A stretch of 64,000 nucleotides of DNA from a virus, in UHGV virus genome UHGV-0018639; one strand, written 5' to 3'. The notes beneath the pieces were generated by a model that worked only from the letters and a program-made list of their open reading frames with translations, had not been told where the DNA came from and did no database searches. Positions within the stretch are counted from its first letter, which is position 1. Each line of letters starts with the position of its first letter. A program made the translations under genes and the position numbers. Below, piece after piece: positions 1 through 19,532 of the stretch.

Positions 1-537
1 ATACCATGCAAGAAACTTGTGCCAACCTTTATTGCTGGTCTGAATGGAGCGTTCTTCCTTCGGTCTGCCGTGCTTGTCAAATCCGGTTAGCGTTCTAATC
101 TTGCCGAACTTCTCAAGCCCTGCGATAAAAAACCAGATAGGCATGAGCAACGCCGGAGTATGAACTTCCGGAGCTATTCCGGTTTTCTTGGATGGCGTTC
201 CCGCCCAGTCAAGGCGGTAAACGATGAAGCGCGGCTTGCCGTCTTTCGCTTGATATTGCAGGCCGCGATACAAGCTCTCTACACGTCCGCCGCAGGTTTT
301 GCACTCAAGCGGACAGAAAACTTTCTGCCCGTCTATCAGCATTTGGATGGTATTGTCTTTGTAGCCGTCTAGCGCTACATCTTCTTTTTCGCTCTTGAAG
401 CGCGTCATTTCAAGCTCGAAGGCTCTACCACGTGCGCCACAATTCACGCCTTCAACAGGCGCAAGCCCTTCCGACTCTTCCCAGCGGCGCAGGTAATAGT
501 CAAGATTGCGCGCGCGTTCGATTTGGTGTTTGTTCAT
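1..537 (-). CDS. hypothetical protein, 5' part only (gene runs off the left window edge); ATG at 537-535
   Basis: The frame is open on the minus strand from the ATG (rc of 535-537) to position 1. An RBS-like aggaagg sits upstream (rc of 541-555). It is absent from the ORF track because it is truncated by the edge. It is divergent from the + strand genes. Confidence 0.5.
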   Translation of the reverse strand, partial: MNKHQIERARNLDYYLRRWEESEGLAPVEGVNCGARGRAFELEMTRFKSEKEDVALDGYKDNTIQMLIDGQKVFCPLECKTCGGRVESLYRGLQYQAKDGKPRFIVYRLDWAGTPSKKTGIAPEVHTPALLMPIWFFIAGLEKFGKIRTLTGFDKHGRPKEERSIQTSNKGWHKFLAWY

Positions 538-897
538 GTGTAACTTCCTTCCTAAATTTGTTATTTGTCCCGCTATGCGGCGTCCACTCCGCGCGGGCTA
601 TATGTAACTGTCAAGGTTCAATTTTCGCTTCGGGGCTTGTCTCTTGCCCCTTGGCAATTATGATTATAGCACTTTCTGCGCGAAAGTCAAGAATTTTTAG
701 ACTGAAAAAACTAACAAACAATCGCCCATTTTTTGATCCATTTTTGTCTAAAATGACGGACAAACCATTACCAAACTTTTGCCAGAACTTCCCTAAAAAT
801 TTACAAATGACAAATTGTGAAAAATTTAACAAGCTAGGGCGCCCATATTTTGGTAAATGGGCTTCCAGTTTCTTCCAAAGGGTCGGGGCCTCCAAAC

Positions 898-1017
898 AAA
901 TTTGCAAAAATTTCAAAATTCAAATTCAAAAATTTCAAAATTCAAATTTGCAAAAATTTCAAAATTCAAATTCAAAAATTTCAAAATTCAAATTTGCAAA
1001 AATTTCAAAATTTGACT
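898..1017. repeat. about five tandem copies of a ~23-bp unit (aattYRcaaaaatttcaaaattca), iteron/operator-like, overlapping the -35 of the downstream promoter
   Basis: Direct reading: aatttgcaaaaatttcaaaattca / aattcaaaaatttcaaaattca alternate with a 46-bp super-period. The ORF track translates this as a KFQNSN repeat, which is spurious. Confidence 0.7.
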
Positions 1018-1040
1018 TTCTCCCTTTCTTGTGCTATAAT
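1012..1040 (+). promoter_or_regulatory. sigma-A type promoter: TTGACT (1012-1017), 17-bp spacer, TATAAT (1035-1040)
   Basis: Perfect consensus hexamers with 17-bp spacing. The RBS aaaggag is at 1091-1097 and the ATG at 1104. Confidence 0.6.
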
Positions 1041-1103
1041 TATAAGTAGAAGAAATAGGTAGGGAAAGAATTAGTAAATTTTCCCATACTAAAGGAGACT
1101 TAT

Positions 1104-2564
1104 ATGTATATACATACATCTAACTTAGACGCTCAACCGCGTCGAAAATCAACATTATCGCTCGACTGGACGCTTGAAACAGCAGTCGAGCGCACAGATT
1201 TTTTGGAAACCTATTTGGCCAATCGAACCGTCCCTCTCTCCGAGTCTGACCTCGAAATGTGTGGAAACTATCTACTTTGGGGACGTGGCTCAAACGGCCT
1301 AAATGCTGAACAAGAAGGTTACGTCCAATTAGAGCGCCGCAACTCTACATGGGCCTCTAGCGCAAATACCCGCCAAGTGTCCTCAATTGAAGAACTAACA
1401 GAAAACCCAACTTTTGATGAGGCGCAATTTCACTCACTGGCCGACACAACTTATAAAACACCCAAACCAAACTTTTCACGTGAAGAATGCCTACGCAAAG
1501 CCCCGCCTGAATTCATTCCAATGCTACGGGATTTGTTTGGGCGCATTGACCGTGTTGAACTATCAATTGGGTTTTATGATAGGGCGCACGGCAAACGCAA
1601 GACAGACTTGCCTGAGCGCCTAACACGCAAGTTTTCACCCGAAGAGCTGTTTGATTTAGAAGAACGCGCGCTTAGCTGGACAAATGGTCAGTATCTCAAG
1701 AAGAAGCATCTTTTAGTGGAGCTGAGACGCGAACAATATACCATAAAGGACAGTTTTTCTAATAGTCTAATGGCACGACCCACAAATAAGTTTGTGGAGG
1801 AGGTTTCACCGACATTTTGCGGGCCAGAATCAGCGGAGGATGGATTTTTGGTTCTCCCTATTGGCTTGTCTGACTCTGCAAGACAAACGCAAGGCAAAAA
1901 CAAGTCGGTCAACTGGTTTTTAGAATTTGAGGAACTTGCCGTGAAAAAAGATGATCCGGCCTATCAAACGCAAGCCCGCAAGTTGGAGAGCCGACTAATC
2001 GAGCGAGGAATTTGTCAGCCACATAAGACAACTAAAAAAACGCAAGAACCCCAAGGAAACGCGTCTCAAAAATCGGCCATGCCATTCGGCTTTCTTACAA
2101 TTGACTTCCGCAATCCGGCCCACATTTGTAGATTGTTGGATAGCCAAAAGCTACTAATAACTGACCCCTCTCTCTCACGAGTGCGCGATACCCTTGATTT
2201 TTATATGCGGCAGGCCAATTTGACCCCCATTCAACAAAAAGTGCTTGAACTCAAACTAGCCGGTAAGCAAAATATGGATATCAAGGAAATTGTCAATAAA
2301 GAATTTGACCGCTCTTATCAGGCAAATTACATTTCCACCATTTATCGACAATACGTAGCCCCCGCAATTGCGGATGCTGCAACTCGTCATTTGGAAATTG
2401 TGCGCGCTATCGCTGAGGGGCCAGAACGTTTCAAATACTGCTCGGTCTGCGGCCGCCTGTTAGTAGAGAGCGAAACCTATTTCATACACAAGAGCCGCGC
2501 AAAATCAGGTTTTTCAGCTCGCTGTAAACAGTGTGATCATGACTATCGGCAAAGGAGAAAGTAA
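1104..2564 (+). CDS. putative transcription regulator: sigma-70 region-4-like HTH (LTPIQQKVLELKLAGKQNMDIKEI) plus C-terminal C4 zinc ribbon
   Basis: ORF track 486 aa with a strong RBS. There is a region-4-like HTH motif and a C-terminal CxxC...CxxC. The function is inferred from motifs only. Confidence 0.5.
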   Translation: MYIHTSNLDAQPRRKSTLSLDWTLETAVERTDFLETYLANRTVPLSESDLEMCGNYLLWGRGSNGLNAEQEGYVQLERRNSTWASSANTRQVSSIEELTENPTFDEAQFHSLADTTYKTPKPNFSREECLRKAPPEFIPMLRDLFGRIDRVELSIGFYDRAHGKRKTDLPERLTRKFSPEELFDLEERALSWTNGQYLKKKHLLVELRREQYTIKDSFSNSLMARPTNKFVEEVSPTFCGPESAEDGFLVLPIGLSDSARQTQGKNKSVNWFLEFEELAVKKDDPAYQTQARKLESRLIERGICQPHKTTKKTQEPQGNASQKSAMPFGFLTIDFRNPAHICRLLDSQKLLITDPSLSRVRDTLDFYMRQANLTPIQQKVLELKLAGKQNMDIKEIVNKEFDRSYQANYISTIYRQYVAPAIADAATRHLEIVRAIAEGPERFKYCSVCGRLLVESETYFIHKSRAKSGFSARCKQCDHDYRQRRK

Positions 2565-2993
2565 ATGAAAGAAAAAGAAAATAAAGTTTCTGTGAAACAG
2601 TTCCAAGAATTCTTGGACTTGTTCTCACAACTTCAAATTTATGACCTAATCGCGCTATGCCAGATTATGAGCACTCCGATGGGTTATGAAAAACAAGAAG
2701 GGGAGGAACGCGCACGCCCGCGTGAGTTAGCTGACATTTTGGAGGAAGTGATGGATAAGTTTCTAGCGCTTCCGAGGGCAAGCCGCAAAGATCTGTTGAA
2801 GGTAATGCGCGTTGCTGTTAAAAATCCATCGCCTGAACCCAAAGAATTCACAAAAATGGCAGCCGCGAAATCAGGCAGGTTAGCTACTCCATCGAACGAT
2901 TCGATTGAATGTGTTGATGGTAAATCTGCTCTACAGACTTGTCCTACTCACACGTGCAGCGTTGCCTCAAAAACAAGTGAAGGTGATACCTAA
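2565..2993 (+). CDS. hypothetical protein
   Basis: ORF track 142 aa, translationally coupled to its neighbours (ATG overlaps the previous stop). Confidence 0.55.
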   Translation: MKEKENKVSVKQFQEFLDLFSQLQIYDLIALCQIMSTPMGYEKQEGEERARPRELADILEEVMDKFLALPRASRKDLLKVMRVAVKNPSPEPKEFTKMAAAKSGRLATPSNDSIECVDGKSALQTCPTHTCSVASKTSEGDT

Positions 2994-4021
2994 TGCCCGG
3001 ACTCGGACCCCAGATGATTCGCCCACGAATTGAGACACAAACTTGTTCATGGTGCGAGTCGCTTTTGGGAAGCGATGAATTTGCTTATACAAATTCTCCT
3101 TTCTATCCTAAAAAGCGCCTTCCGATGTGTAATTCGTGCATCAAACAGTATTTGGTTGAAAAAGATTTTCAATGGGATGCTATTGATCGCATTTGCCAGT
3201 GCGCCGACGTTCCGTTCGTCCCACGAGAATTTGAGCGAGTTCACAACGAGAAAGGTGATGATTGTTTTCCCATCTACGCGGCACTTTTTGCGACCTCTGA
3301 ATATGAGGGGCTTGGATGGGACAATTATTACAAGGCTTATAAACAATTGCGCGATAACGGCCAGTTGATTGATGAGCTTCCATTGCTAGCAGAAGACAAG
3401 CGCGCAAAATTGATCGACCGATGGGGCGCCAATTATGATGATGAGGCTTTGACATACCTTGAACAACTTTATCAAGGCTTACAGGCCACACAGAATATTG
3501 CAGGTGCTCTCCAAAGCGACCAAGCCTATAAAATTTGTAAGATTTCCTATGAGATTGACTGCCGCATTAGAGAAGGCGTTGATTTTGATAAGCTGTTAGG
3601 CTCTTATGATAAGCTTGTCAAGACAGCCGAATTTACACCGAAAAATGCGAAAAATGCAGCTGACTTTGATACCACAGGGGAATTGATTAAATTCTTAGAG
3701 AAAAAAGGCTGGCGTTGTAAATATTATGATGGCGTTACAAGAGATATTGTTGATGAAACAATCAAAAACATTCAAGCCTACAACCAGCGTCTTTATACAA
3801 ATGAAAGCGGCCTTGGTGAGGAAATAACTCGTCGCATTGAAGCCCTTGAACGTGCGAAAAAACTTGAGGGCGCGGAGCAGTCTTTCGAAGAGCGTTATTA
3901 TGGTGAAAGCACGGATGTTAGCGATAATGAAGCTGACCTCTATGAAACCGAAGGCTATAAGGAGCTTCTTTCAATGGACGGCGACGATTTTGAAGCAGAG
4001 GTTGAAGGTTATGACTCCTAA
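2993..4021 (+). CDS. hypothetical zinc-finger protein; by position a possible small terminase subunit
   Basis: ORF track 342 aa with CxxC...CxxC near the N-terminus. It lies immediately upstream of, and overlaps, terL exon 1. No sequence-level evidence for TerS. Confidence 0.5.
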   Translation: MPGLGPQMIRPRIETQTCSWCESLLGSDEFAYTNSPFYPKKRLPMCNSCIKQYLVEKDFQWDAIDRICQCADVPFVPREFERVHNEKGDDCFPIYAALFATSEYEGLGWDNYYKAYKQLRDNGQLIDELPLLAEDKRAKLIDRWGANYDDEALTYLEQLYQGLQATQNIAGALQSDQAYKICKISYEIDCRIREGVDFDKLLGSYDKLVKTAEFTPKNAKNAADFDTTGELIKFLEKKGWRCKYYDGVTRDIVDETIKNIQAYNQRLYTNESGLGEEITRRIEALERAKKLEGAEQSFEERYYGESTDVSDNEADLYETEGYKELLSMDGDDFEAEVEGYDS

Positions 4022-4364
4022 GAAAATTCCCCTTTTGTTAGAGAAAAAAGAAAATATGTTCCAAGCGCCCGATCGACCCGTGCGTGATGGCATTGAGCTT
4101 GAGAAGGGAGTCGCCCTTTCAGAGCAATATTTAGAAGAACATTTAGAGGATATTGAAAATGTAATGGGTACGTTTATTGCGTATCCTGACATTTATCTTG
4201 ATACGATAGCGACAGAGAACTCACCTTCTTTGTTTTTCTATCAGCGCATTACCTTGCGTGCCATTATGAGATTTAAGGAGATATATATCTGTGCCTGCCG
4301 CGCATACTCGAAGAGCTTTATCTCAATTTTGGCAATGATATTGGAATGTATTTTTATTCCGGGT
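4011..4364 (+). CDS. terL: terminase large subunit, exon 1 (118 codons, Walker-A-like CRAYSKS region)
   Basis: The ATG at 4011 overlaps the upstream stop, with a gaagg RBS. The exon ends at U4364 (..CCG GGU), predicted from P1/P10 pairing and from alignment of IFIPG|TRRFICAPNKK with the post-Walker-A region of T4 gp17. ORF track 3837..4400 reads on into the intron. Confidence 0.7.
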
Positions 4365-5584
4365 AAAATGTGTGCCCCCTTACTTCGTGAGGAGTATTGA
4401 ATAAGTTATCTTAAAGCTGGAAAACCGTAAAGTCTCTTATACCTTCAGGGTGCTTCTCTCAAAAAGGTTGCGAAAGTAGAAACAAATAAGAGAATGGCAT
4501 AAGGTGCAAACCTAAGTGCTGCTAATTGGCAATCAGCGACTAAAATAGAAAAAGGAGTATTTATAATGAGTGCAAAGAAAAAGACACATGAACAGTTTGT
4601 AAAGGATATTATAAATAAATATAATATACAAAAAGAGGATTTTACCTTTTTATCAGAATATCAAGGTTATGATAAGCCTATTATTTTTCAATGCAACAAA
4701 TGTGGAAAAATAAAGACTATTGTGGCTGGAGCTTTGCTAAGGACTTCGTCTCATAAAAAACACATATGTCCATGCTACGGTTACGCTCAAGAATGGCACG
4801 AAGAAAATCAATTTTTGCGAATTTGGATAAAAAAGCAATCTAAATATGATATAATAAAATATACTCCGGGGCTTTTAGAAATTCAACTAAAATGCAAAAA
4901 ATGTGGGACTTTTCAAAAACGCTCGGCTAAAAGTTTAGAGAAAAATGATGAGTGTTTGGGCTGTGAGAACAAATGTAATATTAAGAAACCGCAGCAAGTA
5001 TTTGAGCAAGAATTGAAAAATTTCTGTGGAGAAGAATATCAATTAGTTGGAGATTATAATGGATCTGATAACTATTGTCTATTGAGGCATACTCTTTGTG
5101 GGAAAATTTATCGAGCTAAGCCTCATTATCTTCTAACAGGAAAAGGCGGAACTTGTCCTATTTGCCAAATAAAATCAAAAGGAGAAAAAGTAATTGCTGC
5201 TTTTCTTGATAAAAAAAATATTGTTTACTATACACAATATAGATTAGATGAATTTCGGCGTGCACCATATGATTTCTTTTTACCAGACCATAATTTATTA
5301 ATTGAATTCCAAGGCACTCAGCATTTTCAGCCAGTTCCGCGTTTTGGAGGAGAATTGACTTATCAACGACAAAAAGAAGTTGATGAAAAAAAAGTAGAAA
5401 TAGCTAAAAAAGAAAATAAGCAACTACTCATTATAAATTACAATCAAATCGATGAAATAGAAACTATTTTAGCTCAACGACTATCCCTTTATGGGAGTAG
5501 CAATGATATTATTGCGAAACGATAACTATCTCTTAGGAGATAAAGATATAGTCTAATCTTATATGAAAATATAAGTCTTTTTTG
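4365..5584 (+). mobile_element. group I intron (1220 nt) interrupting terL, carrying a homing endonuclease ORF in the P8 region
   Basis: P-like ggttgcgaaag (4466-4476), Q-like ggtgcaaacc, R element tcagcgactaaaa (4534-4546), S element aagatatagtct (5540-5551), a P9 hairpin with GAAA loop, and terminal G5584. P1 is gggU(4361-4364):Gccc(4374-4377). P10 is acacg(5585-5589):ugugu(4369-4373). Splicing gives an in-frame 602-aa TerL. Confidence 0.7.
4566..5525 (+). CDS. intron-encoded homing endonuclease candidate: zinc-finger repeats plus C-terminal Vsr/DUF559-like PD-(D/E)xK motif (PYDFFLPDHNLLIEFQGTQH)
   Basis: ORF track 319 aa with its own RBS (aaaggag). It sits between the intron R and S elements. 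There are multiple CxxC pairs and a C-terminal motif resembling Vsr-like endonucleases. Confidence 0.65.
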   Translation: MSAKKKTHEQFVKDIINKYNIQKEDFTFLSEYQGYDKPIIFQCNKCGKIKTIVAGALLRTSSHKKHICPCYGYAQEWHEENQFLRIWIKKQSKYDIIKYTPGLLEIQLKCKKCGTFQKRSAKSLEKNDECLGCENKCNIKKPQQVFEQELKNFCGEEYQLVGDYNGSDNYCLLRHTLCGKIYRAKPHYLLTGKGGTCPICQIKSKGEKVIAAFLDKKNIVYYTQYRLDEFRRAPYDFFLPDHNLLIEFQGTQHFQPVPRFGGELTYQRQKEVDEKKVEIAKKENKQLLIINYNQIDEIETILAQRLSLYGSSNDIIAKR

Positions 5585-7039
5585 ACACGAAGATTTATTT
5601 GTGCCCCCAACAAAAAACAAGGCGCACAAATAGCTAAAGAAAAGATAAATGAAATTTATGACAAGTGGCCTCTTATAAGGCGAGAAGTGGTAAGAGGCGA
5701 TATTGACCCAATGCCGGGAAATTTTGGTTCAGATTATGTCAGCTTGACATTTCGTAACGGCTCTACATTTGAAGTTTGTGGTGCGTTGGAAAGCACCCGT
5801 GGATTGCGTAAATATGGTGGTTTGATAGATGAGATTCGTGACCATGAGGAACAGCCGATAAGTGAAATTGTCCTTCCTCTTCTCAATGTTTCACGCCGTC
5901 TTCCTGATAACACTGTAAATCCACGTGAACCGAACCAACAAACAATTTTTGCTACAAGTGCGGGCACTAAGATGTCATTTGCATATGACAAACTCATCTC
6001 GGTTTTTGAAAACTCAATAATTCTACCGAATCAATCATTTACATTCGGCTGTGACTATAGAGTCCCAATGATGCACGGACTTGTAGACCGTAAATACATC
6101 AACAATTTAAAAATGGACCCCTCTTTCAACGAAGAAAGCTTCGCTCGTGAATATATGTCCTTGTGGAGCGGGGCTTCTGACGAAAGTTGGTTTAATTTTA
6201 GCAAAATGGAAAAACATCGTAAAATAAAAAACCCAGAATTTCATGCGAATTTTAGAGCTGGAGTCAATCAATTCTACTTTATTTCGGTAGACGTAGCAAG
6301 ACTGGCCGGCTGTCAAACTGTTGCGTGTGTTTTTCGTGTAAATATTAGAAATGATAGATATTATGCAACGCTTGTAAATGTTATTGTACTTGGTAAGCAA
6401 ATGGAACTAAAAACATTTACTCAACAAGCAATTGATCTCAAAAAACTTATTAGGGACTATAAACCAAAAGAGTGTCTTATAGATACAAATGGTTTAGGTG
6501 TTGGCCTTGCCGATGAAATGATAAAAGTCCATTATGATGAACACGGTGAAATGCTTCCAGCATATGGTTTCTTCAATGATGACTCTTATAAAAAAGTACA
6601 GCCAAAAGACGCTATTTGTATCTTATATTCAATGAAAGCCAACGGCCCATTGAATAGTGAAATACATGGGACAACATATGCCCGCATAAATGGCGGTATG
6701 ATTCAGTTTCTAATAAAAGAGCAGGATGCGAAAATTGCTTTGCTCGCTACAAAGGTAGGACAGAAGATGAGTATTGAACAGCGCGTCAAGCGACTTATGC
6801 CGCATGAAATGACATCGAGCCTTTTTGAAGAAATGGCAAATCTTCGTTTGAAAAGAACAGGCTCTGGCACTGATATAGTGCTCGAACAAATCAATACTCG
6901 ATTCCCTAAAGATAAATATTCTGCTTTTTCCTATGGTGTTTGGCGTATCAAACAATTAGAGGATGAAGCAACTAAAAAGCGTCGGCGCCGCACACCCGGT
7001 GTAAAGCGCCAACTAACCTTTTTTTCAGGAGGTCGCTAA
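5585..7039 (+). CDS. terL: terminase large subunit, exon 2 (ATPase Walker B LIDEIRDHEE, motif III TSAGT, nuclease domain)
   Basis: ORF track 5582..7039. Walker B and the coupling motif are visible. Exon 2 starts at A5585 after terminal G5584. Confidence 0.85.
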   Translation, partial: TRRFICAPNKKQGAQIAKEKINEIYDKWPLIRREVVRGDIDPMPGNFGSDYVSLTFRNGSTFEVCGALESTRGLRKYGGLIDEIRDHEEQPISEIVLPLLNVSRRLPDNTVNPREPNQQTIFATSAGTKMSFAYDKLISVFENSIILPNQSFTFGCDYRVPMMHGLVDRKYINNLKMDPSFNEESFAREYMSLWSGASDESWFNFSKMEKHRKIKNPEFHANFRAGVNQFYFISVDVARLAGCQTVACVFRVNIRNDRYYATLVNVIVLGKQMELKTFTQQAIDLKKLIRDYKPKECLIDTNGLGVGLADEMIKVHYDEHGEMLPAYGFFNDDSYKKVQPKDAICILYSMKANGPLNSEIHGTTYARINGGMIQFLIKEQDAKIALLATKVGQKMSIEQRVKRLMPHEMTSSLFEEMANLRLKRTGSGTDIVLEQINTRFPKDKYSAFSYGVWRIKQLEDEATKKRRRRTPGVKRQLTFFSGGR

Positions 7040-7042
7040 TGA

Positions 7043-8578
7043 ATGGCGAATGAAGTAAAGGATACGATTGGCGCACGTCAGGCAAAGAAACGAAATTTCA
7101 ACTTGACTACTCTTGAGGGCGCCAAAGTTCCAGTTGTACCGACTAGTGATACCAGTTGGACACAACTTTCATACGGTATTCCGCGGCGTTATGGTTATTT
7201 TGGGCGCGATCGTTATGACGAAAAAGATATCAAGGACATTATCGAAAATGGTGATGTCCTTGCTCAGCAAAAACTTTCTCGTTATTTTTATGAGCGTAGC
7301 CCGCTGTATCGCCAACAAATTATACATTACGCATCTATTTTGAAATATGTTGGGATTCTTATTCCGCACAGTAAAAGCGGCTCTCTCTCCACTCCTAACA
7401 TAAAGAAGAGATATGAGCGTGGTTTAGAGTTTGTGGAACACTTCAATTTACCTAAATATGGCTTTGAATGGTCAGAAAAAGCTCTTGTGGATGGCTGTTA
7501 TTACGGCGTTATTCAAGACATTACAAAAGATAGTATTTCAATTCTTGATTTGCCGATGCGCTACTGCGTGAGCCGCTTTAAAGACCCAAATGGAAATGAT
7601 TTGATTGAATTTGACGTGTCATATTTTGACACGATTGCTGATGAGGATTCTCGTGAAATTGCGCTTGACACTTATCCACAACTGATAGCGAATCACTATC
7701 GTGCGTGGAGTCGCCGCAAGAGTGTGTCAAATAAGTGGGTAATGATTCCGGCTGACATTGGCATTTGTTTCCCAATGTTGAGTAGTGGTTTACCTTTCTT
7801 TTTGCCAATTTTGCCATCAATTTTACAGTATGAAGATACTGTCGAAATTGAACGTGAACGAGATCTTGAAGAAATTAGGAAGATAATTGTCCAGAAAATT
7901 CCGCACAATACATCCACTAATGAGCTTTTATTCGAGCCTGATGAGGCCCTTGAAATGCATGAGGGCACTGTTGCTATGATGGGTGGTAATAAGAATGTTA
8001 GTGTTCTTACAACCTATGCGGATGTTGATGCAATTGTTTCTAAAACTTCATCTGAAGCTTCGTCTAATTCAATCGAAAAAATGCTGCAGAATGTATTTAA
8101 CAAATCTGGCGTAAGCCCGCAATTGTTTGCATCTACTGGCAGCACTACCCTAAAAATGTCCATCAGAAAAGATATTGCTTTTATGATGACGATGGCTAAC
8201 AAATATGCTACTTTTCTGACCGGCATTTTGAATAAATTGTTCGGCAATTCTAATATAAGTTTTAAATATGAAATTCTTCCTGTTGGAGAGCAAAACTGGG
8301 ATGACTACATCAAATCTGCAAAAGAACTCGCTTCTCTTGGCTATAGTTGGCTTGTGCCGTCTATCGCGCAAGGTATTTCTCAGCGCGATCTTAGTGATAT
8401 CAAACAGCTTGAGAATGATGTTTTGAAGCTCCCAGAAGCCTTGATTCCGCTTCAATCTGCCTATAATGCAATTACAGGTGAGGTTGGTGCGCCAAAGAAA
8501 CAAGAAGAGGAAAAAGCCGAACAAACAATCAAAAATGAAAAATCATTAGATAATACAGCGGGAGGTTCGGTTAGCTAA
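7043..8578 (+). CDS. portal protein (putative)
   Basis: 511 aa, directly downstream of terL with overlapping stop/start. Size and position are typical. No motif-level proof. Confidence 0.6.
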   Translation: MANEVKDTIGARQAKKRNFNLTTLEGAKVPVVPTSDTSWTQLSYGIPRRYGYFGRDRYDEKDIKDIIENGDVLAQQKLSRYFYERSPLYRQQIIHYASILKYVGILIPHSKSGSLSTPNIKKRYERGLEFVEHFNLPKYGFEWSEKALVDGCYYGVIQDITKDSISILDLPMRYCVSRFKDPNGNDLIEFDVSYFDTIADEDSREIALDTYPQLIANHYRAWSRRKSVSNKWVMIPADIGICFPMLSSGLPFFLPILPSILQYEDTVEIERERDLEEIRKIIVQKIPHNTSTNELLFEPDEALEMHEGTVAMMGGNKNVSVLTTYADVDAIVSKTSSEASSNSIEKMLQNVFNKSGVSPQLFASTGSTTLKMSIRKDIAFMMTMANKYATFLTGILNKLFGNSNISFKYEILPVGEQNWDDYIKSAKELASLGYSWLVPSIAQGISQRDLSDIKQLENDVLKLPEALIPLQSAYNAITGEVGAPKKQEEEKAEQTIKNEKSLDNTAGGSVS

Positions 8579-10005
8579 TGAGTAAAAAGATTACTCAGTT
8601 CGATGTACAGCTATATGGTGATTTACAACCGTACAACCAAGTCCTCTCAAAGTGCCGTTGCCGCGTTTTTTATAAGTACGAAAACCGAAATGGCGTTTTT
8701 ATTACAGATGAGTTTGCTGATAAGCTCATTGCAACTTTGCCTTATGTCCCTGTAAAAGGTATTTACGACAAGTTCAATGACGACTATACTGACCACGGTA
8801 AGAATCGTGATGAAGGCCGTATTTATGGTATTGTGCCTGAATCATATAACTTTGCGTGGGAGCCACACGTTGATGGTGATGGTGTTGAACGTATTTATGC
8901 GTGCTGCGATGTCCTCGTCTTTACGGCTCTTTATCAGGAGGCTAGAGAAATTGTTTCTAAAGGTCAATCAATGGAGCTTTTTGCTCCTTCAATAAAGGGC
9001 GGCTGGAAAACAATTCACGGTCAGCGTTTATTTGTATATACTGATGCTTGTTTCCTTGGGCTTCAAGCTTTAGGGGACGATGTAGAGCCTTGTTTTGAAG
9101 GCGCGGCATTTTTTACTTTATATTCTAACTTACAAGAGGCAGTTGACAAGCTTGAGCAATTTGCTTTAGATAATTCAACTGTCAACAATGGAGGACAAGA
9201 AATGGATAAACTCAATTTCAAACTCAGCGATAGTCAGAAGTTCGATATGCTCTTCTCTGTACTAAATCCTGAGTATAATGAGGAAGGTAATTGGAGTGTT
9301 GCTTACTCTATTTGCTCCGTCTATGACGAATATGCTATTGCGTATGATTATGAAAATAATCGCTACGTGCGGGCTTATTACACTAAGAATGATGATGACG
9401 ATTCAATTTCTCTTGGCGAGGTCGTCGAAGTTTATATTGTTGATGTAACTGAAAGTGAAAAAAAGACTCTCGATACTATTCAGGCAATAAATGGCGGCAG
9501 TTTTGAGAAGGCTGATGAAATTTATTCCAAGAATGAAGAACTAACCAATCAGGTTTCTACTCTTGAGGGTCAAGTTTCTGAGTTCCAGACTCAAGTTGAA
9601 ACTTTCAATTCTGAAAAAGAAAATTTTGAACAGCAAATTGTAGAGCTGAATAACGCAAACGCTACTTTACAAACAGAGAATGAAAATTCTGTCGCAGAAC
9701 TCTCTACTTTGAAGGAAGAAGTTGAACAGCTTCGCGCATTTAGGCTCAACGCCGAAACGGCTGAAAAAGAATCAATTCTCCAAAAGTATTCTAAGTCTCT
9801 TCCTGAAGAAACTCTCAAGAAATATAGCGAGAGTCTTGAGAAGTTTGCGATTGCTGATTTGAAGAAAGAATTGGCCTTTGAAATGGTGGAGCATAATCCA
9901 AATTTATTCAATTTGGAAACTCCCGCTCAGTACGTCCCGAAAGAAGTTCATACGGGCGGTATTGAGGATATCTTATCCAAATATACTAATAAAATGGAGG
10001 ACTAA
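8578..10005 (+). CDS. putative prohead protease / scaffolding protein (N-terminal globular domain, C-terminal ~170-aa coiled coil)
   Basis: 475 aa. The C-terminal heptad-rich segment (NQVSTLEGQVSEFQTQVETF...) is typical of scaffolds. Position is between portal and capsid. Protease assignment is tentative. Confidence 0.4.
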   Translation: MSKKITQFDVQLYGDLQPYNQVLSKCRCRVFYKYENRNGVFITDEFADKLIATLPYVPVKGIYDKFNDDYTDHGKNRDEGRIYGIVPESYNFAWEPHVDGDGVERIYACCDVLVFTALYQEAREIVSKGQSMELFAPSIKGGWKTIHGQRLFVYTDACFLGLQALGDDVEPCFEGAAFFTLYSNLQEAVDKLEQFALDNSTVNNGGQEMDKLNFKLSDSQKFDMLFSVLNPEYNEEGNWSVAYSICSVYDEYAIAYDYENNRYVRAYYTKNDDDDSISLGEVVEVYIVDVTESEKKTLDTIQAINGGSFEKADEIYSKNEELTNQVSTLEGQVSEFQTQVETFNSEKENFEQQIVELNNANATLQTENENSVAELSTLKEEVEQLRAFRLNAETAEKESILQKYSKSLPEETLKKYSESLEKFAIADLKKELAFEMVEHNPNLFNLETPAQYVPKEVHTGGIEDILSKYTNKMED

Positions 10006-10010
10006 TACAT

Positions 10011-10565
10011 ATGGCTATCAAAAGACTCGTTATTGATGGTTTTGGCCAGATTGAGTTAAACAATGTGGCTTTCCGTAGAGACGGTCGCGTTGAAGCCCAG
10101 TGCGCCCTTGACGCCGAGGACTTCGCTAGCGTTCCTGCGGAAAATGGTATGCTTTTGGCCGTTGATAAGGCTAATCGCTGCATAAAATTTTATAATGCTT
10201 CTGAGGATCTTCCTCTGGCAATAAATTATAGTTCTGAGCACCTTTATGATGAGCGCCTCAACGCTCTGAAGGACTTTAGCCTCAAGCCCGGTCAGCTTTA
10301 TCCTCGTATGGGTTATCCCGCTATCGGTGACTTGTTTACTACCAACACACTGTGCTATGACGACACCGAGTATACAAGTGAGGATGCTCTTTTGACTGCA
10401 CTCAAGGCTTGCAATACCGCTGTTGTTTATGCTGGTGCTTCTACCAATGGTGCTTGGAAGGTTTCTGCCACTAAGCCGACTGCTGGTGTTATTGCTAAGG
10501 TTGTCAAGGCTTACAGTATGCCTGATGGTCAGTTCGGCGTTAAGCTCCAGATTCTTGGTTGCTAA
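10011..10565 (+). CDS. hypothetical head protein (possible decoration/minor capsid)
   Basis: ORF track 184 aa, immediately upstream of the major capsid gene. Confidence 0.5.
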   Translation: MAIKRLVIDGFGQIELNNVAFRRDGRVEAQCALDAEDFASVPAENGMLLAVDKANRCIKFYNASEDLPLAINYSSEHLYDERLNALKDFSLKPGQLYPRMGYPAIGDLFTTNTLCYDDTEYTSEDALLTALKACNTAVVYAGASTNGAWKVSATKPTAGVIAKVVKAYSMPDGQFGVKLQILGC

Positions 10566-10584
10566 TTGAGGAGGTATTTTGAAT

Positions 10585-11631
10585 ATGGCTACTATAAAAG
10601 AACTGAAAGACCTCGCTCTCCACGCCGCTAAGGGTACTGCTCCCGCAAACTTCACTCAAGAAAACGTTGAGGATGCTTTCCGTGGTGAGATGGGCAAGCT
10701 CGCTTCTTCTTTGAACGAGTTCAATCGTAATAAGTACGATATTTTTGAGATTATAATGAGTGCCGCCGATGAAATCGTTCCTAATAAGGTTATTTCCGGT
10801 ATGGCTCCGTTTGCTGAAGTTCAGCAAGTTGCCTTTAAGCAGAAGGCCGTCTTCCGTCGTCGTGTTGGTCAGAACCGCGCTAAGCTGTTCCTTACCCGTG
10901 CGGCTGCGGCTGGTGTTTATGAGACTTTCCGTCTTGACCACACTGATTTCACCGTTGAAACTTATGCGATCGGTGGCGCGACCACTATCGACTTCCAGCG
11001 TTTCCTTGATGGCGCTGAGACTATGTCCGAGCTTATGGATATCGTGACCGAAGGCATGGTTGACGTTATCTATGGTGAAGTTCAGCGTGCGCTGAAGGAT
11101 GCTATCAATGCGGCTGGTCGTCCTGCGGCTAACAAGTATTCCGGCAACTCCTTCGATGGTACTGAAATGATGAAGCTTATTTCTGTTGTCAAGGCTTACG
11201 GCTCTAGCGCTGTTATCTTTGCTCCTCCTGAGTTCGTTGCCGCTATGGGTCCGGATGCTATCGTTCCTGTCGGCACTAACTATCAAGGTGTTTATCATCC
11301 TCAGGACATCGATGCAATTCACAACACTGGCTATGTTAATCTGTTCCGTGGTACTCCCATTGTTCAGATTCCTCAGTCCTTTATTGACGAGAGCAACACC
11401 AAGACTTGGATTGACCCACAGTTTGCTTACATTCTTCCTGCTGGTAAGGAAAAGGTTGTCAAGGTTGTTCTTGAGGGCGGCCAGCAAATGTACGACTTCC
11501 AGAACCGCGACGCTTCTATGGAACTTCACACCTACCGTCTGATGGGCGTTGCTATTCTGGCACATCACAACTGGGCGATTTACCAGAACACTGGTATCAC
11601 CGAGACTGTTGATTCCCCTTACGATATATAA
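10585..11631 (+). CDS. major capsid protein (HK97-fold family, putative)
   Basis: About 349 aa. GC and codon usage are clearly higher than the flanks, suggesting high expression. A strong RBS gaggaggt is 9 nt upstream of ATG 10585, and a strong terminator follows. ORF track start 10579 is an upstream TTG. Confidence 0.7.
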   Translation: MATIKELKDLALHAAKGTAPANFTQENVEDAFRGEMGKLASSLNEFNRNKYDIFEIIMSAADEIVPNKVISGMAPFAEVQQVAFKQKAVFRRRVGQNRAKLFLTRAAAAGVYETFRLDHTDFTVETYAIGGATTIDFQRFLDGAETMSELMDIVTEGMVDVIYGEVQRALKDAINAAGRPAANKYSGNSFDGTEMMKLISVVKAYGSSAVIFAPPEFVAAMGPDAIVPVGTNYQGVYHPQDIDAIHNTGYVNLFRGTPIVQIPQSFIDESNTKTWIDPQFAYILPAGKEKVVKVVLEGGQQMYDFQNRDASMELHTYRLMGVAILAHHNWAIYQNTGITETVDSPYDI

Positions 11632-11642
11632 TTGAGTTATAA

Positions 11643-11680
11643 AGAGGGAGGGAGTTTCTCCCTTCCTCTATTTTATTTTA
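11643..11680 (+). terminator. rho-independent terminator after the capsid gene
   Basis: GC-rich hairpin agagggagggag-tttc-tcccttcctct followed by a T-run. Confidence 0.65.
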
Positions 11681-11701
11681 GGAGTAAAGGAGTTTTTATT
11701 A

Positions 11702-12180
11702 TGGATAAGAAAAAGATTGCTATTACAAGTCAGGTCAATGGCCGTGTTGGCATCAATGTGCCTGAGATGCGTTTCAAGAAAACTTGGGAAAAGAAAGGTC
11801 AAAAGGTTCTTGTGGATGCAGAGATATTGGAAGAGATTTTTTATGACCCCGGCGTTGAGTATATGTTCCGTCAGGGCATTTTGTATATAGAGGATATGGA
11901 CTTCAAGAAAGAAGTCGGTTTGGAGCCTAATGATGCAAAAGAGCCTGTCAATATTGTCAAGATTGATGATGCAAAGCTTGCTCGTGCGCTTGGTCCCATG
12001 CCGGTTAGTGAATTTAGGAAGTTCTTTGAGCCGCTTACAACTGAACAGAAGCATCAAGTTGCTGACTATGCTATTACTCACGAATGTACTGATTTTAATA
12101 AGAGTGAGATAATTCAAAAGGCCATTGGCATTAATGTCATAAGCGCAATTCAGTTGAATAGGCAGGCTAAGGCTGAATAA
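11702..12180 (+). CDS. hypothetical head-associated protein
   Basis: ORF in the 11632..12180 frame. The ATG at 11702 follows the RBS aaggag. 159 aa. Confidence 0.55.
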
Positions 12181-16453: not shown

Positions 16454-18370
16454 ATGCCTACAAATAGGACAGTGTCTGGGACAATCAACCTAAAGGCGCT
16501 TTTGGATGTTAGTCAGATTAGGAAAGCGGCTAGTGATATTGAAAATGCGTTGAGTGGAGTTTCGCTTCCGAAGAATATTAGTTCTGATTTGACGAAGAAG
16601 TTAAATCAGATGAAGGGAGAAATGACTCGTCTTGATCAGATTCTTGCAGGCGATATTACGGCTGATAGCTCTAAAGAAGCATTGAATTCAGCTCAAAGGA
16701 TTCTCAAAGCTTATAGCGATATAAAAGTTGCAGTTGCACAAGCCGCCAATTTGTCAAATGCGCAACTTAAGAAACTTTTTCCTGAATCAGTAGCTGAAAA
16801 CATTGAGAAAGCAAATAGGGCGCTTGAGAAGTATAATTCTAATTTAGAGAAATATAATAGAGGCATTACTAGTAGAAAAGGCAATATAACAAAACAACAG
16901 AACCGTGAAGCTGAACTTCAACGAAAACTCGCGGCTGAACAAGCTAAACCAACAAATGCTACCGTCAATGGGCAAGTTTATAATGCAAAAGATTTGCGAG
17001 ATCAAGCAAGCGCAGCTCAGAAAGAGATAGATAATGCTCAAAAGAAAATGCAGCAGTGGTATAATGCCAAAGCTGGACGAGAGAATCTTTCCGAAGGGCA
17101 AAAACGTAAATCTAGCACTTATCGACAGATTGCTGATGAGTTAGAAGCAGCAAAGAAAAAACTGAAAGAATTTACAGATGCACAAGCTACTGTTCAAGAC
17201 TCGTCTGCAATAAGCAGCCTTATTAGTCAAATAACTACTGTGCAAGGGAAGATTAAAGATGCTCAAAAAGCATTACAAGATTTCCAAGCGAACAATAGTG
17301 GAACGGCTGACTTTTCAACATTGCGCGCTGAACTTGAAAAACTTGGCATTGATATGTCAAATTTGCCTCAAGATGTCGATGGTGCGAGACAGGCGATCGC
17401 TAAACTGACAAATGATGAACTATCCAAAATTCAGTCGCAAATCAGCGGCGTGGTTTCAGCCACTGATAAAGGCTCTGGTGCTTTTGATAATTATGCTAGC
17501 GGTGCAAATCGTGCGCGAGATGCTGTCCGTCAGCTAACAAATCAAGAGCGCGAACTTCAGCAGTTCCAGTCTCGTGTTGAATACTTCTTTGGTTTCAACA
17601 ATAGCGTTCAGCTTTTGAAAAATGCTGTGCGCGATGCTATTGACACAGTAAAAGACCTTGACGAGGCAATGACTGAGACTGCTGTTGTCACTGACTTTAG
17701 CGTTGGTGATATGTGGAAACAGTTGCCGAAATATACCGATGAAGCTAACAAGCTTGGCGCGACAGTAAAAGGCGCATATGAAACATTGACATTGTTCTAC
17801 CAACAGGGTTTGAATCAGAATCAGGCTTGGGATTTGGGTATTGAGACAATGAAGATGGCCCGTATTGCGGGATTGGACTATGCTAATGCCACTGATCTTA
17901 TGACTAGTGCCTTGCGCGGCTTCAATATGGAGCTAAATCAAGTTTCTTCTCAACGTGTCAATGACGTCTATTCTGAATTAGCTGCTATAACCGCTTCAGA
18001 CGTTGAAGAACTCGGTATTGCAATGAGCAAGACAGCGTCTTTGGCTCATTCTGCTAATATGGAATTTGAGACGACCGCGGCTCTGTTAACACAAGGCGTC
18101 GAAGCGACTCGCGAGAGTCCTGAAACTATTGGTACTAGCTTGAAAACTGTAATAGCTCGTTTTACAGAAGTAAAAGAGCTATTCACAAAAGATCAATTGA
18201 TGGGCACCGACAGTGAAGGCCAAGTTATCAATATAAATAAAATTGATACTGCCCTTCAGACGGTCGGTATTGATTTGAAAAAATTCTTACTCGGCGAGGA
18301 AGGTTTGGATGATGTTTTGCTCCAACTTTCCTCTCGTTGGAATACATTAGACTTAGCAACGCAGAGATAT
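16454..18370 (+). CDS. tail tape measure protein, exon 1 (639 codons, TP901-family core: ...ALQTVGIDLK...SRWNTLDLATQRY)
   Basis: ORF track 16454..18388. The exon ends at U18370. P1 is agauaU(18365-70):Guaucu(18379-84). The last 6 codons of the ORF track are intron-encoded. Confidence 0.75.
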
Positions 18371-19532
18371 TTGCAAAAGTATCTATAACCTATTGAATTG
18401 CGGGAAATTCCTTAGAGCTTTAGCAACCAAGTATAGGTGGTAACACACTATATGGCGAGGGTAATGACTAAGGTACGGTAAAATCGCTAAAGATTGGAAA
18501 ATCCGCAGCCAAGACACATAATCTTGACTTCTTTCTATTTTTATGATATAATAAAAATAGAGGTGAAGAAAATGAAACAAATTTGTTTAGATAATGAACC
18601 AACTCCTTTTTATATCACAGAAAGTGGGGCTTTATGGAGAGAAGATACTAACCACTGGTATAGACCCTTTGAAAATGGTGGTTATCTTAGCTATCACTTA
18701 AAATGGAAAAATAAAACATATCCAAAACGAGTTCATCGGCTTGTGGCAGAGGCTTTTATTCCTAACCCAGACAATTTACCTTTTGTCCATCATAAAGACC
18801 ATAATAGGCTTAATAATTGTGTTAATAATTTAGCTTGGGCTTCTATCAAAGAAAACAATCAAGATAAATTGGAAAAAATGAAACAAGAAAGATATATAAA
18901 TGAGAAAATAGACTTTGAAAAAGAAGAGTGGAAGCAATATATGGAAACTGATTTTTGGGTTAGTAATATGGGGCGAGTCAGAAACCAACGGACAAAAAAT
19001 ATTCTAAAAGGGAATATCCGAGATAATGGTTATATTCGCTATGGGCTAAGATATGATGGAAAGATTCATTCTTTCAATGGGCACAACCTCGTTTGGTTAG
19101 TATGGAATGGCCCACAAAAAGGAGTTATAAACCATATAAATGGAGATAAATTAGATAATAGATTATCAAATCTTGAAGATGTTTCTCAATCAGAGAATCT
19201 GATAAAAGCAAATATTCCCAATCGTACCCCCGTCTGTAATAGTTTAGAGCCAGATGGAGAAATTATAAAAGTTTTTCCGTCTCAAGGACAAGCAGCCAAA
19301 TATTATAATATAAGCTCAGGGACTTTGAATAGAGCGCTTTATAATAAAGGTTGGCGAGCGGGTGGCTTTTATTGGAGAAAATTAGAAGAATCAGATTATG
19401 TGTAAGGTTCAACGACTACTCTATATCGGATAACGATGGAGGTAGAGACATTGCGTCTCGAAGTGGTAGGATGGATTTGAAAAAGAATCCAGTGATATAG
19501 TCTATTCCTTTGCGAAAGTAAAGGTAGTAAAG
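18371..19532 (+). mobile_element. group I intron (1162 nt) in the tape measure gene with an HNH homing endonuclease ORF in the P6 region
   Basis: P element aattgcgggaaa (18396-18407). Q element aatccgcagc (18509-18518). R element gttcaacgactac (19407-19419). S element gatatagtct (19494-19503). P9 hairpin with GAAA loop and terminal G19532. The spliced product reads ..LATQRY|IATQAAGSRQQSRFLAMISNY.., matching the conserved TP901 tape measure core. Confidence 0.8.
18572..19405 (+). CDS. HNH homing endonuclease (two HNH-like motifs: VHHKDHNRLNN...SIKEN and INHINGDKLDNRLSNLEDVSQSEN)
   Basis: ATG 18572 after RBS agaggtgaag. ORF track start 18494 includes the intron Q element. 277 aa. Confidence 0.8.
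   Translation: MKQICLDNEPTPFYITESGALWREDTNHWYRPFENGGYLSYHLKWKNKTYPKRVHRLVAEAFIPNPDNLPFVHHKDHNRLNNCVNNLAWASIKENNQDKLEKMKQERYINEKIDFEKEEWKQYMETDFWVSNMGRVRNQRTKNILKGNIRDNGYIRYGLRYDGKIHSFNGHNLVWLVWNGPQKGVINHINGDKLDNRLSNLEDVSQSENLIKANIPNRTPVCNSLEPDGEIIKVFPSQGQAAKYYNISSGTLNRALYNKGWRAGGFYWRKLEESDYV

Follow-up and report, generated by a model that had tools for sequence, protein, structure and literature searches.

Several phage introns, including those of T4 td (encoding I-TevI), T4 nrdB and nrdD, Twort orf142 and the SPO1 DNA polymerase gene, share a group I core of the IA2 type with additional P7.1/P7.2 hairpins. Such introns typically combine a short P1 containing a U-G pair, a P10 guide pairing and an open reading frame (ORF) that is looped out of a peripheral helix, which is P6 in td. 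In phage terminase genes, proteins of the family PHROG 559 have been described in terL introns of Bastillevirinae (including Moonbeamvirus, Nitunavirus and Caeruleovirus; Herelleviridae), with a VSR rather than an HNH signature (PMC11878797). The terL introns of Staphylococcus phage Twort (MT151386.1) are annotated with the PHROG 559-family proteins IepA and IepB. The Vsr-like EDxHD family of homing endonucleases is represented by the intron-encoded I-Bth0305I (PDB 3R3P), whose intron likewise interrupts a phage gene, one that encodes a DNA-dependent ATPase (PMC3239194).

The window (the whole stretch of viral DNA that was analysed, 64,000 nucleotides) contains at 4365-5584 an element which is very probably a mobile group I intron of the phage IA2-like type, inserted in the part of the terminase large subunit (TerL) gene that encodes the ATPase domain. 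This terL intron with its homing endonuclease belongs to a kind of element known from the terminase genes of other phages, of which it is a well-formed member, and does not overturn current understanding, while extending terL introns with Vsr-like endonucleases past Herelleviridae to an uncultured SPbeta-like phage group. The Herelleviridae terL introns agree with it in host gene, IA-type phage intron, ORF in a loop and PHROG 559 endonuclease, but nucleotide similarity is confined to the conserved core. The two hosts also differ in their terminases, since Herelleviridae TerL belongs to phrog_675, whereas the window TerL matches phrog_15503/phrog_2 and has SPbeta-like neighbours, namely conserved structural-module genes with YonG_N, YonD_N and YonB domains. 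In Twort, the first intron precedes the Walker A region and the second is placed far downstream of it, in contrast to 17 residues after Walker A in the window. With the phage IA2 introns as a whole, the window intron shares P7.1/P7.2, the short U-G P1, P10 and the looped-out ORF, and its S and P9 sequences are near-identical to those of many phage introns; it differs from them by a large conserved P5 extension, by having no P9.1/P9.2 and by ending 9 nt after P9. The endonuclease class is also different, being GIY-YIG or HNH in T4 td and other IA2 introns and Vsr-like here.

Insertion boundaries and the intronless allele

4011..4364, + strand: terL exon 1, 118 codons from ATG 4011, including the Walker-A-like ACRAYSKS
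4365..5584, + strand: group I intron, 1,220 nt, exactly missing from the intronless allele L001
5585..7039, + strand: terL exon 2, 484 codons plus stop, whose first 5 nt (ACACG) are the P10 strand

ORF frame analysis showed that the terL frame is open to 4364, meets a stop at 4398-4400 and is in frame again from 5585. The limits of the insert are fixed by an intronless metagenomic allele (L001; protein P0001, 602 aa), which is about 99% identical to the predicted spliced TerL and runs through the junction without an indel. In the blastn comparison, window positions 1105-4363 correspond to L001 positions 1-3259 and window positions 5585-12039 to L001 positions 3261-9715; because these blocks flank the junction of 4364 with 5585, the insert is exactly 1,220 bp, as the original prediction had it with an insert of about 1.2 kb at this junction. 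Excision of 4365-5584 restores the terL reading frame, as seen when the predicted ligated product is compared with P0001, and the junction peptide proposed earlier, IFIPG continued by TRRFICAPNKK, is the same as that encoded by intact homologues. Profile searches gave the same picture. The phrog_15503 profile covers exon 1 with its positions 26-115 and exon 2 with positions 119-213, contiguously, and a weak Pfam TerL_ATPase match extends over the junction (residues 85-137) in the spliced protein only. Exon 2 matches the terminase large subunit families phrog_2, phrog_5909 and phrog_9. A search with TerL returned 2,116 significant matches, among them hundreds of homologues of about 600 aa, and a scan of 185,579 species genomes found no TerL relatives.

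The insertion point lies between Gly118 and Thr119; the Walker-A-like ACRAYSKS is about 17 residues upstream and a Walker-B-like GGLIDE about 80 residues further on. The spliced frame and the intronless allele thus bear out the predicted location in the ATPase domain past the Walker-A region. For annotation purposes, terL should be given as a join of 4011..4364 with 5585..7039, without which gene callers produce two terL fragments and a mislabelled "HNH" gene.

Splice sites and ribozyme core

4361..4377, + strand: P1 hairpin, exon GGGU 4361-4364 with guide GCCC 4374-4377 (sequence and MFE fold)
4378..4392, + strand: P2 hairpin, CCUUAC/GUGAGG, 6/6 pairs in the MFE fold, conserved or compatible in L036-L038
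4405..4410, + strand: P3 5' strand, GUUAUC, partner 5521-5526; 4/6 pairs changed on both sides, 97% of cells paired (18 sequences)
4416..4420, + strand: P4 5' strand (P element), GCUGG, partner 4533-4537; aligned with P4 of the Rfam-annotated CB457P1 intron, 98% of cells paired
4425..4529, + strand: P5 (4425-4427/4527-4529) with its peripheral extension
4433-4440/4486-4493, + strand: P5a, 8/8 pairs covary; in the MFE fold
4441-4445/4464-4468, + strand: P5b, in the MFE fold
4469-4478, + strand: GAAA hairpin of the P5 extension, in the MFE fold
4496-4520, + strand: GGCAU...GUGCU stem with GCAA hairpin, P5 extension, in the MFE fold
4533..4537, + strand: P4 3' strand (Q element), UCAGC, aligning with CAAUCAGC (Q) of all family members
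4540..4548, + strand: P6 5' strand, CUAAAAUAG, partner 5464-5472 across the ORF
5464..5472, + strand: P6 3' strand, CUAUUUUAG, within the ORF
5474..5483, + strand: R element, UCAACGACUA, J6/7 and P7 5' strand (A5477, bulged C5478, G5479-A5483)
5484-5487/5493-5496, + strand: P7.1, covaries; in the MFE fold
5501-5505/5510-5514, + strand: P7.2, in the MFE fold
5521..5526, + strand: P3 3' strand, GAUAAC, overlapping the ORF stop codon 5523-5525; covariation
5527..5542, + strand: P8 hairpin, UAUCUC-UUAG-GAGAUA, closed 6-bp stem without ORF (Rfam alignment)
5543..5554, + strand: S element, AAGAUAUAGUC at 5543-5553; J8/7 AAGAUA and P7 3' strand UAGUC(U)
5558..5575, + strand: P9 hairpin with GAAA tetraloop (Rfam alignment), 5/7 pairs covary
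5584, + strand: terminal guanosine (omega G), last intron base, boundary from the intronless allele

Both ends of the intron agree with the original prediction. P1 is only 4 bp long, with a U4364-G4374 wobble at the 5' splice site, and CCGGGU before the site together with GCCCC in the guide is kept in all four same-site introns (the window, L036, L037 and L038). The splice codon is GGU in these four intron-bearing alleles and GGA in both intronless alleles. The P10 guide UGUGU (4369-4373) lies inside the P1 loop, directly 5' of the P1 strand, and pairs with ACACG at 5585-5589. This pairing, which had been called from the window, covaries with exon 2 among the same-site introns in three versions (ACACG:UGUGU, ACAAAAC:GUUUUGU and AGUAAA:UUUACU), being changed in L037 and L038. 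A G just before exon 2 is also found in L036-L038, and the predicted GAAA-capped P9 and the terminal G5584 after it are both present.

A covariation test, in which the structure was carried from window coordinates onto 18 sequences with 61 pairs, found 92.3% of cells paired and 36 pairs with double changes. The covariation value was 0.50, compared with 0.17 in shuffles (0/500 reached the observed value) and 0.08-0.125 in slid controls, and the covarying helices are P3, P5, P5a, P6, P7, P7.1, P8 and P9. In P7 every cell is paired (100%) and two pairs covary, and all six pairs of P8 are changed on both sides. The count leaves out P7.2, for which MAFFT put the window one column out of register; judged from the same-site introns, this hairpin has compensatory changes in L037 (GC-GAAA-GC) and L038 (GAGCU...AGCUC). 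With the ORF deleted, MFE folding of the RNA gives P1, P2, P3, P4, P5a-d, P6, P7.1, P7.2 and P8, while P5 covaries in the alignment yet has 0/3 pairs in the fold. An assignment of P5 to 4454-4459/4489-4494, made by manual folding, was dropped, as the family alignment gives P5a at 4433-4440/4486-4493. The covariation counts and the exact match to the intronless allele rule out a chance origin, and the same two lines of evidence back the earlier reading of a group I intron in terL.

Database models see less of the core. In E-value mode, Rfam matched only the 3' third of the intron, with a partial RF00028 hit on the P8/S/P9 part (30.6 bits, E 1.3e-5), and the whole window gave no match at the gathering score, which is 50 bits for this family and is a detection threshold rather than a defining property of group I introns. 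The score falls under the threshold because the 915-nt ORF in the P6 loop (L6) splits the core, and the homologous but ORF-less intron of Enterocloster phage CB457P1 reaches 93.6 bits on RF00028. A megablast of the locus against annotated phages returned only a 34-nt match, exact, to S/P9 of Flavobacterium phage FPSV-D18. Homologous cores are present in introns of Clostridium, Staphylococcus, Listeria and Enterocloster phages, and the CB457P1 intron and about 30 IMG/VR contigs share a homologous P3-P9 core, including the P5-extension motif AUGGCAUAAGGU..AA.CCUAAGUGCU, which is common to 30 viral contigs. These relatives occupy other host genes with other P1/P10 guides, and most are without an ORF in P6, although one of them (L008) has a homologous endonuclease ORF there. 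Compared with the CB457P1-type relatives, the window intron has lost one P5-extension hairpin and the post-P9 helices. Extra P7.1 and P7.2 hairpins between P7 and P3' mark subgroup IA in the Michel and Westhof scheme, and both are present here, as in IA2-like introns.

The position of the ORF had been read differently. The original prediction had R and S elements flanking the endonuclease ORF, which was placed in P8. The S element stands, with seven invariant columns and the others nearly invariant, and lies within the RF00028 partial match. The R element does not stand at its former place, since the string tcagcgactaaaa exists at 4533-4546 but consists of Q and the P6 5' strand. An architecture in which this string would pair with S as P7 draws on the complementarity of GACUA (4538-4542) to UAGUC (5549-5553) and on its resemblance to the R consensus, but comparative data refute it and leave it practically no credence. 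The order in 17 related introns is CAAUCAGC, then P6, then UCAACGACUA, and this last element occurs in the window at 5474-5483, with P7.1, P7.2 and P3' after it in the family register. This R element is nearly invariant in 18 introns, with six invariant columns, and is kept in L036-L038, whereas GACUA at 4538 is missing from the same-site L037 and L038 and CAACGACUA is kept in all same-site introns. P8 is a closed, covarying 6-bp hairpin at 5527-5542. The ORF is instead bracketed by the 9-bp P6, which has nine perfect Watson-Crick pairs, all in the MFE fold, and whose base is in register with the family P6 that covaries at 3/3 pairs. The ORF thus sits in the P6 loop.

T4-like phages are known to have free-standing endonuclease genes that interrupt other phage genes. 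A comparable arrangement here, with separately translated terL halves whose two polypeptides assemble without splicing, could draw on a possible TTG start of exon 2 at 5582, but no ribosome-binding site precedes it. A complete covarying group I core surrounds the ORF, the guide covaries with exon 2 in three lineages, which would be purposeless without splicing, and the exon 1 frame reads into the intron to an arbitrary stop; a split terL is accordingly very improbable.

The intron is expected to splice by the standard group I mechanism. P1 would arise by pairing of the exon 1 end GGGU with the internal guide GCCC, placing the U-G wobble at the cleavage site, and a free guanosine bound in the P7 pocket (the G5479-C5553 pair beside bulged C5478) would attack after U4364. 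The terminal G5584 would then take the place of the guanosine in this pocket, while P10 (ACACG with UGUGU) would position the 3' exon, and exon ligation would yield a TerL of 602 aa.

The endonuclease in the P6 loop

4552..4557, + strand: ribosome-binding site, AAGGAG, 8 nt before the start codon (ATG) of the endonuclease gene
4566..5525, + strand: endonuclease gene, 319 aa, three zinc-ribbon modules followed by a C-terminal Vsr-like nuclease

The endonuclease would be made from this P6-loop gene through its own ribosome-binding site, and a GGAG before the ATG is also found in L036-L038. The last ~20 codons overlap P6', J6/7, P7, P7.1, P7.2 and P3'. The protein matches the PHROG 559 profile over residues 2-317 (E 9.1e-48), and homologues of it occur in 416 phage records, those of both Twort terL introns among them; IepB of Twort shares 31.5% identity with it across 95% of the protein, and the architecture of IepA is the same. 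In the AlphaFold2 model (mean pLDDT 87.8), the N-terminal 200 residues form three helix-plus-beta-hairpin modules with Cys/His ligand sets (C43, C46, C68, C70; C110, C113, C130, C133; H175, C178, C197, C200), which presumably bind DNA. They are followed by a nuclease domain of the PD-(D/E)xK superfamily, for which a fold search gave a Vsr-type fold. The CxxC pairs, the D...ExQ...H nuclease motif and the fold search uphold the earlier call of a zinc-finger, Vsr-like (PD-(D/E)xK) homing endonuclease. E207, D236, E247, H253 and D273 do not vary among 21 homologues, the most distant of which have 22% identity.

Pfam gave weak, sub-threshold matches to zinc-ribbon families only, with no HNH match that would indicate a beta-beta-alpha-metal motif, so that the PHROG 559 label 'HNH endonuclease' is a misnomer. 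A phmmer search against PDB sequences found no match for the endonuclease or for spliced TerL. The invariant E...D...H...D series appears compatible with the composite EDxHD motif, and a profile alignment to 3r3p places E207 opposite the first E of that family; the alignment is weak (E-value 0.35), so that sequence similarity to I-Bth0305I is marginal. The EDxHD family carries an N-terminal NUMOD/helix-turn-helix region, whereas such a DNA-binding region was not found in the N-terminus of the window endonuclease, where the three zinc-ribbon modules stand instead, and for this reason the enzyme is filed as Vsr-like and not as a typical EDxHD protein. The ORFs also differ in position, which is P6 here and P5 in the I-Bth0305I recA intron (PMC3239194). 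The type of endonuclease, whose combination of zinc ribbons with such a nuclease was earlier called not typical for intron-encoded enzymes, is indeed uncommon, but has precedents: Vsr-like endonucleases of introns make up the EDxHD family (PMC3239194), and PHROG 559 proteins are reported from terL introns (PMC11878797).

Tentatively, PHROG 559 may represent a separate lineage of homing endonucleases, in which a tandem series of three zinc ribbons, in place of NUMOD/HTH motifs, would guide a Vsr-fold nuclease apparently specialised for phage terminase genes, with the TerL ATPase domain of the SPbeta-like clade as a three-site hotspot; we consider this an even-handed guess leaning slightly to the negative. 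The family is without a characterised member, and recognition based on zinc ribbons could interest nuclease engineers.

Intron-plus and intron-minus alleles

The endonuclease presumably cuts the intronless terL of co-infecting relatives close to the insertion site, after which recombinational repair would copy the intron together with a short piece of flanking exon. The existence of an allele that is ~99% identical and has no intron is a presence/absence pattern typical of recent gain or loss. From 32 bp upstream to 24 bp downstream of the insertion point, the window and L001 show nine differences; seven are synonymous, and the non-synonymous ones at 4333 and 4340 change Val107/Met109 to Ala/Ile. 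The cluster is flanked by 563 bp before and 83 bp after it with 0 differences. Ordinary mosaic recombination could contribute to this cluster, because a second patch of differences from L001 exists at 5900-6130. L036 has a second intron (GIY-YIG) at about 5816; this patch is not centred there, so that it is not claimed as a co-conversion footprint of that site.

The ribozyme could be intact in an element that is itself immobile and only vertically inherited, with an endonuclease that is inactive or re-purposed, for instance as a maturase-like or competition factor. The nuclease is only remotely similar to characterised enzymes, and alleles with and without the intron do not have the same target sequence, so that many natural targets may resist. 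Nevertheless, the ORF has its full length, the 21 homologues show no change at its putative catalytic residues, and a ~99% identical intronless allele exists. The same ORF-intron pair moreover occurs at the same terL site in L037 and L038, where the surrounding DNA is only 64-66% identical. Immobility is therefore rather unlikely, and a mobile intron remains the preferred reading. The natural intron-plus/intron-minus allele pairs and the three P10 variants would be convenient material for experiments on homing and target recognition.

The three sites of the possible hotspot in the TerL ATPase domain of the SPbeta-like clade are those of an intein in Walker A, of the present intron after Walker A, and of a GIY-YIG intron just before Walker B.

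Boundaries of the terL intron

The terL gene starts at an ATG at position 4011, which overlaps the stop codon of the upstream YonG_N-domain gene, and its first frame is open to 4364, followed by a stop at 4398-4400; a second long terL frame runs from 5585 to 7039. The two pieces are halves of a single protein, since PHROG family 15503 aligns its profile positions 26-115 to the first and 119-213 to the second. A weak Pfam TerL_ATPase match, under the curated cut-off (residues 85-137, E 0.013), is seen solely in the joined protein. Searching with the joined 602-aa TerL returned hundreds of uninterrupted proteins of ~600 aa, and the best match, P0001, is ~99% identical over its full length. The metagenome contig encoding it (L001) aligns to 1105-4363 and 5585-12039 of the window and is without exactly 4365-5584 (1,220 bases). 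A genuinely split terL flanking a free-standing endonuclease gene is a poorly supported reading. The alternative junction 4363|5584, one base to the left, fits the DNA and the protein equally well, but only 4364|5585 leaves exon 1 ending in U and the intron ending in G. The boundaries are established as originally predicted.

Three other contigs (L036, L037 and L038) have close or distant homologues of the endonuclease at this site of terL, in surrounding DNA that shares 91%, 66% and 64-67% identity with the window, respectively. All three retain CCGGGU| at the end of exon 1 and GCCCC as the P1 guide, in agreement with the proposed P1 (gggU:Gccc). The P10 pairings (exon 2:guide) are ACACG:UGUGU in the window and L036, ACAAAAC:GUUUUGU in L037 and AGUAAA:UUUACU in L038. 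Changes in the guide bases are thus matched by changes at the start of exon 2, which gives direct comparative support to the predicted P10 (acacg:ugugu) and to the 3' splice site. The codon of Gly118 is GGA in two intronless alleles (L001 and L002) and GGU in all intron-bearing ones, a division that is consistent with the U-G requirement.

Ribozyme core and location of the ORF

No Rfam family matched at the gathering score; in E-value mode, RF00028 matched 5460-5575 (30.6 bits), a hit confined to P8, J8/7-P7' and the GAAA-capped P9. The ORF-deleted intron matched 217 records of annotated phages by blastn, including those of Staphylococcus, Listeria, Clostridium, Enterocloster and Bacillus, and a group I intron is annotated in one of the 217. 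The match in Enterocloster phage CB457P1 is an ORF-less intron scoring 93.6 bits on RF00028.

The original prediction had placed R at 4533-4546 and the ORF in P8. Comparison with CB457P1 identified CAAUCAGC at 4530-4537 as the counterpart of Q, the 3' strand of P4, and the order in the relatives is Q, the P6 hairpin and only afterwards R (UCAACGACUA). The supposed R actually combines Q with the 5' strand of P6, as the alignment of introns described below also indicates; its GACUA is not kept in the same-site introns of L037 and L038, while CAACGACUA is kept in all. The true R lies at 5474-5483, within the final codons of the endonuclease ORF; P7.1, P7.2, the second strand of P3 (3'), P8, S and P9 then follow in the register of the family. 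Since a perfect 9-bp helix (4540-4548/5464-5472) brackets the ORF, the ORF sits in the P6 loop, and the architecture with the ORF in P8 is poorly supported. The presence of P7.1 and P7.2 between P7 and P3' assigns the intron to subgroup IA, of the IA2-like phage type.

The P5-extension motif, used as query, found 30 further viral contigs, and 17 distinct relatives were aligned with the ORF-deleted window sequence. In this alignment, 92.3% of the proposed pairs are standard and 36 of 61 have changed on both sides. The covariation score is 0.50, compared with 0.17 for shuffles (0 of 500 reached the observed value) and 0.08-0.125 for slid controls. The covarying helices are P3, P5, P5a, P6, P7, P7.1, P8 and P9; P4 does not vary, nor does part of the P5 extension, in the latter case partly as a result of its having served as the search motif. 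The unconstrained MFE fold of the ORF-deleted precursor recovered P1, P2, P3, P4, P5a-d, P6, P7.1, P7.2 and P8, while P7, being pseudoknotted with P3, cannot appear in it. Taken together, the fold of the intron is established.

The endonuclease and the probable mobility of the intron

The endonuclease ORF (4566-5525) is preceded by AAGGAG (4552-4557) at a spacing of 8 nt. Its top family is PHROG 559 (9.1e-48), labelled "HNH endonuclease", and Pfam gave zinc-ribbon matches only, all sub-threshold. Relatives were found by tblastn in 416 phage records, including Bacillus SPO1-like phages and both terL intron ORFs of Twort (IepA and IepB). In an alignment of 21 homologues, C197, P198, E207, L214, D236, I246, E247, G250, H253 and D273 are invariant and K276 nearly so. 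The AlphaFold2 model built on this alignment (mean pLDDT 87.8) shows three modules of similar build in the N-terminal region, each combining a helix and beta-hairpins with a four-ligand Cys/His set:

Cys/His sets of the endonuclease in the AlphaFold2 model
Module 1: C43, C46, C68, C70
Module 2: C110, C113, C130, C133
Module 3: H175, C178, C197, C200

In a profile search of PDB sequences, residues 206-304 aligned to 3r3p with a weak E-value of 0.35. The HNH label is incorrect; the class of the protein, zinc fingers with a Vsr-like PD-(D/E)xK nuclease, is established and had been correctly recognized.

The differences between the window and L001 here are at 4333, 4340, 4346 and 4364 on the exon 1 side and at 5587, 5590, 5599, 5602 and 5608 on the exon 2 side. 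Seven of these nine differences are synonymous, and those at 4333 and 4340 turn Val107/Met109 of P0001 into Ala/Ile; the two sequences are identical throughout the 563 bp before this stretch and the 83 bp after it. The cluster resembles a tract of co-conversion. Another divergent patch (5900-6130, 25 differences in an allele otherwise ~99% identical) is centred on neither intron site and probably arose by mosaic recombination, so ordinary mosaicism occurs too. Downstream of the P5 motif in L008 (IMGVR_UViG_3300028242_000164), a homologous endonuclease ORF (MPKKKTHEQFIKEF...) lies in P6 of a related intron, which suggests that the ORF and the intron lineage travel together. An element that splices but is immobile finds poor support, although it is the least improbable of the rival readings. 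The best explanation is a mobile self-splicing IA2-like intron, with splicing chemistry, cleavage and homing predicted from its family.

The EDxHD family was defined for Vsr-like intron endonucleases, among them I-Bth0305I, which is encoded in a recA intron (PMC3239194); where I-Bth0305I has NUMOD/HTH motifs, the window endonuclease has zinc ribbons. In a 2025 survey of Bastillevirinae, group I introns were found in 5 of 52 terL genes; four terL introns are listed as encoding proteins of PHROG 559 that bear a VSR signature, and one terL intron was demonstrated to splice in vitro and in vivo (PMC11878797). The Twort GenBank record likewise gives terL as three exons with two intron-encoded proteins, so the window element belongs to an already known kind. 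It is new in its phage lineage, its TerL family and its site of insertion. The genes neighbouring terL share YonG_N, YonD_N and YonB domains with SPbeta-like phages; no close nucleotide match was found in annotated phages, nor any TerL relative in the species-representative genome set. The main interpretation is supported; the observation is partly confirmed, because one structural assignment was wrong.

Further selfish elements in relatives and candidate introns in the window

Unlike the window, L036 (4748-5889) and L037 (~4730-6120) have an additional terL intron, which encodes a GIY-YIG endonuclease and is inserted directly before the Walker-B-like GGLIDE (equivalent to ~5813-5819 of the window). 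P0002 (L002 6001-9018, 1005 aa) is a TerL of 98% identity whose Walker-A-like motif (VVA|CRAFSKS) is interrupted by an intein of 403 aa (CLKGDT...VEGHN, +1 Cys); its gene has no intron at 4364|5585. Three kinds of selfish element have thus entered TerL in this clade, at three sites close together in the ATPase domain.

Two further apparent group I introns are seen in the window:

~18389-19580, plus strand: second intron, interrupting a long gene (ORFs 16454-18388 and 19581-25655)
~46983-47742, minus strand: third intron, splitting an nrdD-like anaerobic ribonucleotide reductase gene (ORFs 47743-48927 and 46002-46982)

The former, in what is presumably a tail tape-measure gene, has R (TCAACGACTA) at 19409, S (GATATAGTC) at 19494, P7.1/P7.2, P8, a GAAA-capped P9 and an ORF (18494-19405) with the HNH-like motif VHHKDHNRLNN. 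The latter, whose situation is similar to that of the T4 nrdD intron, shows P7.1, P8, TCGACTA as an R-like string and S (GATATAGTC) at 47008-47016, and its ORF (47112-47609) also contains an HNH-like motif. Further strings that resemble R (TCAGAGACTA) or S (GATATAGTC, GACATAGTC) stand isolated at 51853-51862 (minus), 58944-58952 (plus; no R nearby) and 11019-11027 (minus); S-like strings number 5 in the window against 0.63 expected. In Clostridium phage D-1873 (L003), a RAGATH-18 RNA (4235-4304, 61.7 bits) lies ~1.5 kb downstream of the record's annotated group I intron and is unrelated to the terL intron.
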